This document shows positions 32,650-34,775 of a stretch of DNA of 42,570 nucleotides, piece after piece. Below the pieces are notes generated by a model, which worked only from the letters and a program-made list of their open reading frames with translations, was not told the DNA's origin and searched no databases. The DNA is taken from positions 1-42,570 of the IMG/VR virus record IMGVR_UViG_2687453563_000006. One strand, written 5' to 3'. The position numbers and the translations under genes were made by a program. This DNA comes from a virus (lineage: Duplodnaviria > Heunggongvirae > Uroviricota > Caudoviricetes). Position 1 is the stretch's first letter, and each line of letters opens with the position of its first letter.

Positions 32650-33303
32650 ATGATGAACATGAGTGATCGTATTCGCCAAAGGCGAAAAGAACTGAACCTG
32701 ACACAACAAGCACTGGCTGATTTGACTGGTGTGAACCGTGTCACGGTTACTGGATGGGAAAAGGACGACTACCAACCAAATGGAGCCAACCTTCAAGCCC
32801 TAGCCAACGCACTTAAATGCGATCCTCTGTGGCTTGTTAGCGGAAAAGGCTCGCCTGAACCAAAGATAAATCTAAAACCTGAAATATTCGCAGTTAAAAA
32901 AGTCCCCCTCATCTCGTGGGTTCAGGCGGGTTCATGGACAATGACGGAGCCTGGTGTCAGGAAAGAAGATGCTGAAGAGTGGGTTTATACTACCGCCCTT
33001 GTATCAGAAATGGCATTTGCACTACGGGTCCGTGGTGATTCAATGACCAATCCCCTCGGCTCACCATCGATACCAGAAGGTTCTATCGTTATCGTAGAGC
33101 CAGATATTATTGATACAGAGTGTATTAACGGAAAAATCGTTGTTGCCCATATCAATGGTGGGCAAGAAGCGACACTCAAAAAATTTGTTGAGGACTGGCC
33201 GAACAGGTATCTCGTCCCACTAAATCCTAACTATAAAACTATTGAATGCGGTGAGAACTGCAGAATAGTTGGTCTTGTCAAACAAGTAATAATGGATTTT
33301 TGA
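32650..33303 (+). CDS. CI-like repressor (HTH plus S24 LexA-like peptidase)
   Basis: N-terminal HTH (LTQQALADLTGVNRVTVTGWE), C-terminal RVRGDSM...K motif. Confidence 0.9.
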   Translation: MMNMSDRIRQRRKELNLTQQALADLTGVNRVTVTGWEKDDYQPNGANLQALANALKCDPLWLVSGKGSPEPKINLKPEIFAVKKVPLISWVQAGSWTMTEPGVRKEDAEEWVYTTALVSEMAFALRVRGDSMTNPLGSPSIPEGSIVIVEPDIIDTECINGKIVVAHINGGQEATLKKFVEDWPNRYLVPLNPNYKTIECGENCRIVGLVKQVIMDF

Positions 33304-33323
33304 CACATCTTCCTCACTATCGC

Positions 33324-33350
33324 AAAACCGGGGTATCCCCGGTTTTTTTA
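33324..33350 (+). terminator. Intrinsic terminator after cI
   Basis: AAAACCGGGGTATCCCCGGTTTTTTT perfect hairpin plus T7. Confidence 0.8.
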
Positions 33351-33365
33351 TGAGCCTATCTTTTT

Positions 33366-33420
33366 ATGTAGGATAACCAACATAAACTCTTGACACTCAC
33401 ATGTTGGATATCCTACATTT
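33366..33420 (+). promoter_or_regulatory. OL operators / PL promoter
   Basis: Two copies of the OR site (atgtaggataaccaacat, atgttggatatcctacat) around TTGACA -35. Confidence 0.7.
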
Positions 33421-33424
33421 GTTT

Positions 33425-33444
33425 TTAGAGTTGTGGTGAATGCG
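33425..33444 (+). repeat. 20 bp direct repeat copy A (ttagagttgtggtgaatgcg), followed by hairpin
   Basis: 19/20 identical to copy B at 34080; lies at the predicted 5' end of the PL transcript. Confidence 0.6.
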
Positions 33445-33536
33445 CAGGCTGATGCGCGAAAGACATTGCAGCTATTGCGGAAAAGAGCTGTTCGGCGGGG
33501 CAATTAAACGCCCGTATCTGGAGGTTAAAGAACAAA

Positions 33537-33812
33537 ATGAAAGTCCAGATTTTAAACAATAGTGGTGAAGTCGTTTGGTCATACGACATAGCCGCTCCTG
33601 TAGATCAGAGCGGCGATAGCTGGACCAATGGGAAACATCAGATTATGGCTGGAGTTGTATTCTCTTTACGCCGTGCTTTGGAACAGGCTGAAGTATTTCC
33701 ATCAGACCCTGAATGGAAATGGCCTTTTTCTATTTGTCCAAATTCGGAGAGTACATTTCAGAAAATTGGTCAGAAAGTCGCACTCGAAGAGCATCAGCCA
33801 ACTGTTTCCTGA
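33537..33812 (+). CDS. Hypothetical early protein (first PL gene)
   Basis: 91 aa, strong ggagg SD. Confidence 0.55.
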   Translation: MKVQILNNSGEVVWSYDIAAPVDQSGDSWTNGKHQIMAGVVFSLRRALEQAEVFPSDPEWKWPFSICPNSESTFQKIGQKVALEEHQPTVS

Positions 33813-33975
33813 TTTTTTCAGGTAGCTCGTCGGCATCGCAGAAACAACAACGCTCGATCATGTTGAAAGCCGATTCGTAGAACTGTTTCTGCTGAGTGTC
33901 GCTGAGACAGGAAAAGAGCGACGTTACGATGATTTTATTAATTGCATTATCAAGTTCTTTTTCATCAAAAGTCAT
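33730..33975 (-). CDS. Hypothetical Cys-containing protein, antisense to PL operon
   Basis: 81 aa with aagga SD; 3' end overlaps the convergent 33537..33812 gene by 83 nt. Confidence 0.45.
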   Translation of the reverse strand: MTFDEKELDNAINKIIVTSLFSCLSDTQQKQFYESAFNMIERCCFCDADELPEKIRKQLADALRVRLSDQFSEMYSPNLDK

Positions 33976-34079
33976 TTGATTTTCCTTTTATGTATACGGA
34001 CTTAAAAGGATACCACCGAGCCTGAAGTGGTGAAAAGACAGGCACATAACAGCTAAGTATTTTCAACCAGAGAGAATCC

Positions 34080-34099
34080 TTAGCGTTGTGGTGAATGCG
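34080..34099 (+). repeat. 20 bp direct repeat copy B (ttagcgttgtggtgaatgcg)
   Basis: See copy A. Confidence 0.6.
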
Positions 34100-34230
34100 G
34101 CTCAGCGCACGCGGGTTAAGGTTGAGGCTGACAGTCGACCTTCTGTGGATACCCACCCGCCTGGTGTGCAACCTTCGCCAGGCACCGGGAGGCACCCGGC
34201 ACCACAACTTTATGCTGTGTGTAGTCCTGG

Positions 34231-34275
34231 CGGTACCAGCTTGTACCATTGCTTCCGGCTGGTACCGTCCTTTTT
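34231..34275 (+). terminator. Intrinsic terminator-like hairpin inside early-left operon
   Basis: cggtaccagc...gctggtaccg 10 bp stem followed by tcctttttac. Confidence 0.5.
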
Positions 34276-34363
34276 ACAAAACAGAGAAGAGCATCACCGG
34301 ACGACGGGCTCATAACCCAATCCATCCGGGCGGCAGCCACCGCAGGTGTTCTTCTCTGTTTTG
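34276..34363 (+). ncRNA. Long-range inverted repeat (14 bp arms caaaacagagaaga / tcttctctgttttg around a 54 nt GC-rich loop); candidate structured RNA
   Basis: Perfect 14 bp arms; no protein-like ORF across 33976-34422. Confidence 0.3.
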
Positions 34364-34422
34364 TGGAGAAACCAACCGACCTTGCAGGGTCGATATGATG
34401 AGGAGCAGCAAAATGGTTAGCG

Positions 34423-34775
34423 AACGCAGTACTGATGTGCAGGCATTTATCGGGGAGCTGGACGGCGGCGTATTTGAAACCAAAATCGGCGCAGTTCTCA
34501 GTGAAGTCGCTTCCGGTGTGATGAACACGAAAACCAAAGGGAAGGTCTCACTCAACCTGGAAATCGAACCATTTGATGAGAACCGTGTGAAAATCAAACA
34601 CAAACTCTCATATGTTCGCCCGACTAACCGCGGGAAAATTTCCGAAGAAGACACCACCGAAACGCCGATGTATGTCAATCGCGGTGGTCGCCTGACTATT
34701 CTGCAGGAAGACCAGGGACAGTTACTGACTCTTGCCGGTGAACCTGACGGAAAACTCCGCGCAGCAGGTCGTTAA
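34423..34775 (+). CDS. Hypothetical protein (YfdP-like by position and size)
   Basis: 117 aa from internal ATG with gaggag SD; the upstream part of track ORF 34095..34775 is structured non-coding sequence. Confidence 0.5.

Follow-up and report, generated by a model that had tools for sequence, protein, structure and literature searches.

An STnc100/PasD-like RNA module in the early-left operon of a lambdoid prophage

Prophage RNAs resembling the early-left block

PasD1 and PasD2 of enteropathogenic Escherichia coli (EPEC) are abundant Hfq-dependent small RNAs (sRNAs), confirmed by Northern blot and with many partners in RIL-seq (ligation and sequencing of interacting RNAs; PMC8550237). PasD and STnc100 share a structure and probably an ancestry (preprint, bioRxiv 10.64898/2026.05.13.724894). 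A third prophage sRNA, DicF, is cut from the dicBp transcript, by RNase III to a form of 190 nt and by RNase E to one of 53 nt (bioRxiv 10.1101/2023.04.14.536235); RNase III also yields a 72-nt DicF with a longer 3' end (PMC5069750). Here we compare these RNAs to a noncoding block in the early-left operon, positions 33425-34422, of an SfV/e14-like lambdoid prophage (IMG/VR virus record IMGVR_UViG_2687453563_000006; the whole stretch of 42,570 nucleotides is called the window). The block holds one truncated copy (copy 1, A-type) and one complete copy (copy 2, B-type) of an RNA domain. With its score below threshold and its place in an early operon, the window copy is a variant of a known family of prophage sRNAs; the family's conserved pseudoknotted domain is of more interest than the 20-bp repeat in the block, and the RNA fold is conserved well beyond what the known role explains.

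The original prediction, made from the sequence alone, had offered a nut- or put-like antitermination RNA, an sRNA, or the footprint of a recombined cassette as explanations for the block, and had proposed a covariance-model scan. In the scan against Rfam, no family matched anywhere in the window at the gathering thresholds. A permissive search returned one real family match in the window, to STnc100 (RF02076), which spanned 34055-34278 and model positions 1-206 of 206 (42.4 bits, E = 1.5e-7). The other weak matches (Termite-leu on the cI terminator, ftsZ-DE, and a hairpin ribozyme) were at chance level.

As in STnc100 and PasD, the window domain has a multi-stem fold with invariant GGUGAAU and CACCGGGAGGCACCCGGCACC motifs, the order is domain, linker, and intrinsic terminator, and the setting is a lambdoid prophage of Enterobacteria. 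By sequence and fold, the sRNA option fits, with changes: the block is a terminator-ended structured RNA of the prophage sRNA kind represented by STnc100 and PasD. The window copy differs from them in the sequence of the P1 hairpin and closing stem (GCGGCUCAGCGCACGC versus CCCCCUGUGCGGAGGGG). It lies in the early-left operon behind the promoter PL and not in the late region, with Q, stx, tRNAs, and lysis or esterase genes, and it has no recognizable promoter of its own.

DicF lies, like the predicted window unit, behind a repressor-controlled promoter; dicBp in prophage Qin is the equivalent of PL. Its 190-nt form comprises a folded 5' domain (with the closing stem GUUGUGGC/GCUGCAAC in Qin), a linker, and a terminator hairpin; the window unit, with a domain of 124 nt, a linker of 20 nt, and a terminator of 47 nt, is also about 190 nt long. 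One arm of the terminator that follows the A-type domain matches the center of DicF (UUUGGCGGUAUCAGUUUUAC) at 19 of 21 nt with one gap, the 5' arm of the window terminator (34229-34240) resembles this center, and a full STnc100-like element is found directly 3' of dicF in Qin. In contrast, the Rfam DicF model (RF00039) scored 15.8 bits (E = 2.1) at 34216-34270, compared to a threshold of 48 and to 76.7 bits for genuine DicF; the window linker and the 5' end of DicF are unrelated in sequence; and model R1, the covariance model described below, does not detect the Qin domain upstream of dicF. DicF and STnc100/PasD, which have been studied separately, are linked in one modular architecture.

This upstream Qin domain, formed by the 130 nt before dicF (L135:1370-1484, L135 being our Qin sequence), has the same topology, with a closing stem, a first hairpin, and a last one, the loop of which (CCAUAC) can pair with a GUAUGG after the first hairpin. 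Judged from the published lengths, its 5' edge would be the expected 5' end of the 190-nt DicF, within a few nt. The element after dicF, in the dicF-dicB spacer (L135:1571-1702), is a full STnc100-like element in which helix P5 is CCUGG/CCAGG and not CCGGG/CCCGG. This element has an extended closing stem of 17 bp (z = -4.86), and by the same reckoning the RNase III 3' end of the 72-nt DicF would fall inside this stem.

Both coincidences would be expected if the domain were an RNA-processing or insulator module, at which RNase III and RNase E cuts part noncoding cargo (sRNAs and tRNAs) from mRNAs and protect 5' ends, with no function in trans. They consist of the 17-bp Qin stem with the 72-nt DicF 3' end inside it by our coordinates (PMC5069750), and of the 190-nt DicF 5' end at the closing stem of a similar domain upstream of dicF (bioRxiv 10.1101/2023.04.14.536235). 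In the same direction point a long hairpin with a stem of about 25 bp directly after the window terminator, and the placement of elements between tRNAs and genes in phage P1 and in Stx phages. However, a long duplex suffices for cleavage, which leaves GGUGAAU, CACCGGGAGGCACCCGGCACC, and the covarying pseudoknot unexplained; the closing stem in the window is just 9 bp; and stable RNAs of this family accumulate, depend on Hfq, and have many partners in RIL-seq (PMC8550237). We regard a pure processing module as unlikely.

Fold, covariation, and noncoding status of the B-type domain

The complete B-type domain occupies 34085-34208 on the plus strand, as supported by the STnc100 match, model R1, folding, and covariation. 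The 9-bp closing helix P0 (GUUGUGGUG at 34085-93 with CACCACAAC at 34200-08) closes a five-helix domain whose other members are P1 (34097-34112), P2 (34113-15/34156-58), P4 (34159-66/34176-83), and P5 (34185-99). The minimum free energy is -58 kcal/mol (z = -2.8).

A pattern scan of viral contigs found at least 120 loci. In an alignment of 42 diverse phage copies, the window copy among them, the GGUGAAU and CACCGGGAGGCACCCGGCACC motifs were invariant, and the consensus fold showed compensatory changes in 12 of 24 pairs. Model R1, the covariance model calculated from these 42 copies, gave 84.5 bits at 34083-34210 for the window copy, which is a training member; copies outside the training set reached 67.6 bits (e14) and 65.4 bits (Qin dicF-dicB spacer), and the complete A-type element 22.9 bits (E = 6e-5). 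At E values up to 1, the model detected neither the truncated copy 1 nor any other second copy in the 42.6-kb window, including the PR side.

Among 92 distinct sequences, 91.1% of the alignment cells were paired, compared to 78.0 ± 0.4% in shuffles and 36-47% with slid partners; this alignment was fitted to the nested helices and is hence biased towards them. Double-sided changes were present in 23 of the 31 pairs. Every variable helix of the domain is supported by covariation.

A pseudoknot, absent from the Rfam STnc100 structure, forms between the P4 loop CAACCUU (34169-75) and AAGGUUG (34118-24), the strand that directly follows P1/P2. The pseudoknot was not part of model R1, and its test was thus independent of the model. 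For 53 different strand sequences, the longest complementary run to the sequence's own loop was compared, free of register, to the run with permuted loops; the mean was 7.36 nt for own loops versus 5.28 ± 0.17 nt for permuted loops, and none of 20000 permutations reached 7.36. In fixed alignment columns only 67% were paired, because the loop register shifts between sequences. Fully different pairs occur in the family (AGACUGACAAA/UUUGUCAGUCU, GAACUGGCA/UGCCAGUUC, and AAGGCUGG/UCAGCCUU), and pseudoknot mutants offer a concrete handle on what the RNA may do in lysis-lysogeny or host takeover.

The same AAGGUUG strand (34118-34124) can alternatively pair with the local strand UCGACCUU (34137-34143), a hairpin that is present in the minimum-energy fold. 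Of the two pairings, the one with the P4 loop covaries across the family; the local pairing could be a folding intermediate or a switch.

Downstream of the domain is a linker (UUUAUGCUGUGUGUAGUCCU, 34209-34228, plus strand) that is unpaired in the fold of the 199-nt RNA and is a candidate seed region. Its part UGCUGUGUG(U/A)AGUC is retained in Salmonella ST64B and Cronobacter phiES15 despite different terminators. The linker leads into an intrinsic terminator (34229-34275, plus strand; z = -3.65), and the terminator-like hairpin reported earlier is indeed there, with a 12-bp stem (34229-40/34258-69) followed by CUUUUU and the U tract at 34271-75.

A long Y-shaped hairpin with a stem of about 25 bp and two small arms begins in the terminator U tract (34271-34369, plus strand; -51.2 kcal/mol, z = -7.95). 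The original prediction had described a perfect 14-bp inverted repeat around a 54-nt loop; the inverted repeat is present at 34276-34300/34340-34364, but its size is different. The arms are 25 nt long and 84% complementary, and the outer 15 bp are perfect and enclose 59 nt. Compensatory changes, which had been proposed as a check on the arms, were found in relatives: e14 and ST64B retain the hairpin with GAGAAGAG/CUCUUCUC replaced by GAAAAGAG/CUCUUUUC. From its predicted fold, the hairpin is a candidate RNase III site in read-through transcripts.

On the upstream side, homology with e14, SfII, SfIV, Kati, and others begins at 34007, whatever lies before it. This conserved upstream segment of the B-type module (34007-34084, plus strand) contains a hairpin at 34012-34031. 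The promoter scan detected no convincing promoter on either strand of the segment. GAGAAT at 34072-77, considered as a promoter of copy 2 itself, is not conserved in ST64B or phiES15 and was rejected.

The block had been described as GC-rich after the second repeat and devoid of a plausible open reading frame (ORF). Its GC content is 0.52-0.61 across 34025-34400, as claimed, versus 0.37-0.45 in the gene pair that precedes it. The statement about ORFs held only in part: the block is noncoding, but a 226-aa ORF (34095-34775) is open through it, in frame with the yfdP-like gene that follows. Which frame is open differs among e14, ST64B, and the window, and the phiES15, Lys8385Vzw, 933W, and Qin copies have no open frame at all; since the frame is unlike or closed in every homolog examined, the block is noncoding. 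A conserved protein, which the original prediction had named as one finding that would speak against it, did not emerge, as the homologs share no conserved reading frame.

It is therefore scarcely credible that the block encodes a longer YfdP (ORF 34095-34775) or a YmfH-like protein as in the e14 annotation, even though the ORF is open and in frame with the yfdP-like gene and RefSeq annotates ymfH on the homologous e14 sequence. Besides the lack of a conserved frame, the substitutions keep base pairs and not codons, homology with the K-12 yfdP begins only 19 nt 5' of the ATG at 34413, and the high GC content accounts for long chance ORFs. The block thereby becomes annotatable as a PL-operon RNA gene with a truncated paralog from mosaic recombination, and the spurious long ORF can be removed.

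In e14 (L007:2579-2890, corresponding to window 34007-34402), the RefSeq coding sequence ymfH lies wholly on the B-type module. Because the frames are not conserved among homologs, ymfH is, as far as the sequences tell, probably not a protein gene. The elements of phage P1 (L005:2000-2630) are antisense to the annotated plp and upl ORFs, which have a TTG start and odd composition and may be spurious. These annotated ORFs, ymfH and the P1 plp and upl, are thus suggested to lie on RNA genes.

The 20-bp repeats, PL, and the mosaic joint

The two 20-bp repeats on which the original prediction was based are present as described, at 33425-33444 (TTAGAGTTGTGGTGAATGCG) and 34080-34099 (TTAGCGTTGTGGTGAATGCG), both on the plus strand; they are identical at 19 of 20 positions and 655 bp apart. 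In 2000 shuffles of 33300-34500, a 20-mer direct repeat with at most one mismatch was never obtained. Folding also recovered the small hairpin after each repeat (33442-57, GCGCA/UGCGC, and 34097-34112). The repeat corresponds to the conserved 5' strand (GUUGUGGUGAAU) of the multi-stem RNA domain of about 124 nt. On sequence comparison, it is the common 5' part of two paralogous RNA subtypes and not an insertion scar.

The cI-like repressor gene (32650-33303, plus strand), whose product has HTH_3 and Peptidase_S24 domains, marks the immunity region and shows which way the early-left operon runs; cro-like and cII-like genes are located on the minus strand, divergent from it. The repressor gene ends in an intrinsic terminator (33324-33352, plus strand), formed by a perfect inverted repeat of 10 bp (AAAACCGGGG/CCCCGGTTTT) and a T run after it. 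Next come the left operators OL and the promoter PL (33366-33419, plus strand). PL (TTGACA at 33390-95, an 18-nt spacer, and TACATT at 33414-19) scored 10/12 and was the sole good plus-strand match in the promoter scan. Copies of an 18-bp operator palindrome lie beside and within it (33366-83 and 33401-18), and a third site in the window is found at 32587-604, between the cro-like and cI-like genes (6 matches versus 0.01 expected). A promoter match with operator palindromes after the repressor gene identifies this promoter as the repressor-controlled early-left PL. From its position, the PL transcript would start at about 33426-28, and copy 1 would therefore begin 2-4 nt after the predicted start, at GTTGTGGTG. 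This agrees with the earlier placement of the first repeat at the 5' end of the PL transcript.

Copy 1 is a truncated A-type element (33430-33515, plus strand) that consists of the first 86 nt and is 100% identical to the corresponding part of Lys8385Vzw. It retains the 5' strand of the closing stem (33430-38), the AAU, hairpin P1 (33442-57), and the inner hairpins, and has lost the last hairpin and the 3' strand of the closing stem. Most likely, it is an inert remnant.

Lys8385Vzw (L002:2951-3216) is 100% identical to the window from the end of cI through PL to 33515. Past this point, its A-type element continues for 60 nt to its own CACCACAAC, followed by the window's terminator; the window has 712 bp (33516-34227) in place of these 60 nt, and homology resumes at 34228. 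The A-type element is similarly intact in mEp460, and an intact A-type element stands at the equivalent PL position in phages without the 712-bp insert. In SfV, which matches the window from 33535 onward, the PL leader is of another kind and the repeat occurs only once. The e14 element of E. coli K-12 matches window 34007-34402; the ORF pair before this match, ymfJ/ymfI, is convergent but unrelated. Between the blastn breakpoints against Lys8385Vzw and SfV lies a mosaic joint of 19 nt (33516-33534, plus strand) that is found in neither parent type and holds the GGAGG ribosome-binding site of ORF1.

From these alignments, the window is a mosaic of the immunity region, PL, and 86 nt of A-type element, then the 19-nt joint, then the ORF1/ORF2 cassette with the complete B-type module. 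The locus is an ordinary prophage mosaic joint in the early-left operon. Of the recombined cassette in the original prediction, the recombination stands, as the duplicated 20-mer marks a recombination joint; the repeats are not flanks made by an insertion, since two paralogous elements share their 5' end.

A different explanation assigns the function to the repeats themselves, as target-site duplications or as attachment- or cassette-like recombination sites of a mobile two-gene element, with the GC-rich block incidental. The repeats do bracket a two-ORF segment of lower GC content, e14 has a different convergent ORF pair at the equivalent place, and the order in phage P1 is an A-like copy, a spacer, and a B-like copy. 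However, the true homology boundaries are at 33535 (SfV) and 33516/34227 (Lys8385Vzw) and not at the repeats; SfV has the cassette with a single repeat copy; as the 5' strand of a helix, the 20-mer covaries in about 90 sequences with its partner 115 nt away; and no recombinase is associated. We consider functional insertion repeats very improbable.

The convergent pair in the cassette overlaps by 83 nt, as the original prediction had it: predicted ORF1 (33537-33812, plus strand, 91 aa, a homolog of SfV orf33 and member of phrog_3195) and predicted ORF2 (33730-33975, minus strand, 81 aa, phrog_3311, with an AAGGAAA ribosome-binding site). Both phrogs are without an assigned function, and neither ORF matched a Pfam family. 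ORF1 homologs comprise only four phage copies, all near-identical, and ORF2 homologs were found only in E. coli, mostly with at least 88% identity. ORF1 is unrelated to e14 YmfJ, and ORF2 to e14 YmfI.

Distribution of the domain and its possible roles

The STnc100/PasD domain is far more widespread than the Rfam matches suggest. Of 5426 complete E. coli genomes, 2978 contain some part of the 1.2-kb region. The domain is located behind cI and PL in phages of E. coli, Shigella, Salmonella (ST64B), and Cronobacter (phiES15, before kil). In Stx and related phages it is located in the late operon, after Q, tRNAs, and stx; this is STnc100 proper, for which the Rfam model gave 207.7 bits on 933W, and the context was read in 933W, PhiR49_2, and PhiR12_2. 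The ban operon of phage P1 has two or three tandem copies between tRNA-Thr and tciA, and related copies are also found in Klebsiella phages. An intrinsic terminator follows 87 of 117 distinct elements (74%), with the U run at a median of 52 nt downstream of the domain. In phage P1 and Qin there is no terminator after the domain, and a gene (tciA and dicB, respectively) follows directly. The downstream genes (yfdP, xis, kil, dicB, tciA, esterase, and holin) are unrelated to one another.

Some IMG/VR contigs contain arrays of three to four tandem STnc100-like units with a period of about 250 nt (L033:370-991, L041:1723-2344, L074:4377-5462, and L023:2323-3353). Every unit comes with an AT-rich spacer and with a linker and terminator of its own, and the arrangement resembles a multicopy sRNA gene family. 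In phage P1, 2240-2345 is A-like, 2503-2626 is B-like with the closing stem GUUGCGGUG/CACCGCAAC, and a third element is possibly located at 2008-2170.

On the direct basis of the homology, fold, covariation, pseudoknot, terminator, mosaic breakpoints, and noncoding status, we think it probable that the block is a DicF/PasD-like terminator-ended sRNA module that derives from the repressor-controlled early-left transcript. The tandem arrays with a terminator for each unit, and the linker kept across the E. coli, Salmonella, and Cronobacter copies, also favor this assignment. Transcription from PL, termination, processing, Hfq binding, and action in trans are the parts that we infer. Once the repressor is lost, transcription from PL would run through the truncated copy 1 and the ORF cassette and then through the B-type RNA, and part of it would stop at the terminator at 34271-75. 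A U-tailed terminator hairpin is the usual Hfq-binding end. Processing on the 5' side would free an Hfq-binding RNA, which would act in trans by base pairing through the linker UGCUGUGUGUAGUC. Read-through transcripts would fold the hairpin at 34271-34369, where a cut by RNase III would detach the RNA from the mRNA of yfdP. The direct repeat of 20 bp exists because a second copy, of a different subtype, once stood directly at the PL start, where sister phages still have it; recombination exchanged its last 60 nt for 712 bp with the ORF1/ORF2 cassette and the B-type copy.

Several observations weigh against an sRNA module of this kind. The STnc100 score of 42.4 bits is below the curated gathering threshold of 47 bits, and the DicF model reached only 15.8 bits. 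The promoter scan revealed no convincing promoter directly upstream of copy 2, and a discrete RNA would therefore depend on processing. Conservation in base-pairing sRNAs is usually highest in the seed. In the present case, the structured domain with its invariant junction motifs and pseudoknot is most conserved, and the linker differs between the subtypes. The covarying pseudoknot and invariant junctions are more than a simple base-pairing sRNA needs, which suggests that the domain has a function of its own beyond the sRNA model; a cis role in polymerase modification, sensing, or processing is therefore possible. In phage P1 and Qin, where the domain is found directly before tciA and dicB without a terminator, it looks cis-acting.

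Taken furthest, the pseudoknotted domain of about 120 nt would be an autonomous functional RNA, which senses or binds a protein or the polymerase, such as a new processive antiterminator or a riboswitch-like switch. We rate this as possible, though a good deal less probable than not. If true, temperate phages of enterobacteria would place it at the start of early-left and of late transcripts and immediately before genes toxic to the host (dicB, kil, tciA, and holin); the base-pairing activity of STnc100 and PasD would be secondary; and K-12 would have two unrecognized copies (e14 ymfH and the dicF-dicB spacer).

A cis-acting leader has a described precedent in phage HK022, where put RNA suppresses termination by binding the beta' zinc-binding domain of RNA polymerase. 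The domain in the window would then modify RNA polymerase for read-through of the terminator 20 nt downstream and of later ones, as do HK022 put and Bacillus EAR, or would be a riboswitch-like sensor (aptamer) that sets termination at 34229-34275. In sister phages with an intact A-type element, the folded RNA is at the very start of the PL transcript, 2-4 nt past the start, with the terminator directly after it and no N-like gene between; this is the position of HK022 putL (PMC9378689). Invariant junction nucleotides and a pseudoknot are found in aptamers and in polymerase-binding RNAs, the median of 52 nt from the domain to the U run is typical of expression platforms, and in phage P1 a hairpin that, in our reading, could mask the tciA ribosome-binding site overlaps with the closing stem on its 3' side. 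As for a riboswitch, the aptamer-like fold and the terminator spacing fit, whereas the downstream genes are functionally unrelated; an alternative pairing of riboswitch type between the closing stem and the terminator was sought by eye in the window, and nothing convincing was found.

The comparison with put itself went against a leader of this type. HK022 put is about 70 nt long, has two stems, and follows both PL and PR, whereas the domain here is about 124 nt long, with five helices and a pseudoknot, in a single copy, and the PL-proximal copy in the window is truncated. When HK022 putL and putR were compared to the window block, no alignable similarity and no put consensus were detected; the sole match (13 of 15 nt, GCGGGUUAAGGUUGA) is located in the variable strand of the pseudoknot. 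There is no copy downstream of PR, and no room for one between the cro-like and cII-like genes on that side. The put part of the original prediction is consequently without support, although the complete element at the very beginning of the PL transcript in sister phages leaves it a slight probability. Moreover, the arrangement with a truncated PL-proximal copy is kept in many genomes, the mEp460 element is about 300 nt from PL, the Qin element comes after and not before the dicF terminator, stand-alone array units with their own terminators fit genes rather than leaders, and nothing is common among the downstream genes from yfdP to holin. We therefore doubt that the element is a cis-acting leader, and the sRNA module is preferred.

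The nut part of the original prediction is excluded, as none of the three boxA-like (YGCUCUUWA) matches found in the window, at 1085, 15361, and 40071, is near PL. The block shares with lambda nutL the position in the PL leader and small GC hairpins with loops of 5-6 nt. It has, however, no boxA and no recognizable N gene before the terminator, and its hairpins belong to a larger covarying fold. The lambda 6S and StxS RNAs, which are terminated leaders from late promoters of phages, are likewise short and stop at the first terminator of their operon, past which the polymerase must read to reach the other genes. They begin at PR' and are simple hairpins, whereas here a conserved pseudoknotted domain is located 655 nt from the promoter in the window.

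Past the RNA module, a small hairpin (CGACC-UUGCAG-GGUCG, 34377-34392, plus strand) lies 20 nt 5' of the start codon of the yfdP-like gene and is conserved in Lys8385Vzw (L002), SfV (L003), mEp460 (L004), and e14 (L007). The yfdP-like gene (34413-34775, plus strand, 120 aa, phrog_204) is the first conserved early-left gene after the module; it is named yfdP in E. coli genomes, and it is in K-12 CPS-53 that homology begins 19 nt before the ATG.

The PL leaders of SfV (L003:2384-2470), e14 (L007:1775-1860), and ST64B (L009:2160-2240) share another conserved 5' leader RNA, which is absent from the window. It consists of GGCAGGACGCCCACGAAGUAGCC, a hairpin with compensatory changes (CCUGG.., CCGGU.., and CCCGGU..), and GAUGAUUCG. 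An 8-nt likeness (CAGGAUGA) to stem II of HK022 put was observed, and this leader RNA may be a put-like element.

Other prophage RNAs were encountered in the relatives. C4 antisense RNA and isrK exceeded the Rfam thresholds on the PR side of Lys8385Vzw (L002:904-1089), SfV (L003:204-392), and mEp460 (L004:1-157, minus strand), in an immI-like antirepressor control region; at gathering thresholds, neither had a match in the window. In 933W, the anti-sRNA AsxR (L011:2208-2260, minus strand; 88.1 bits) abuts the STnc100 terminator on the opposite strand. The AsxR and STnc100 genes are thus convergent and share the terminator sequence.

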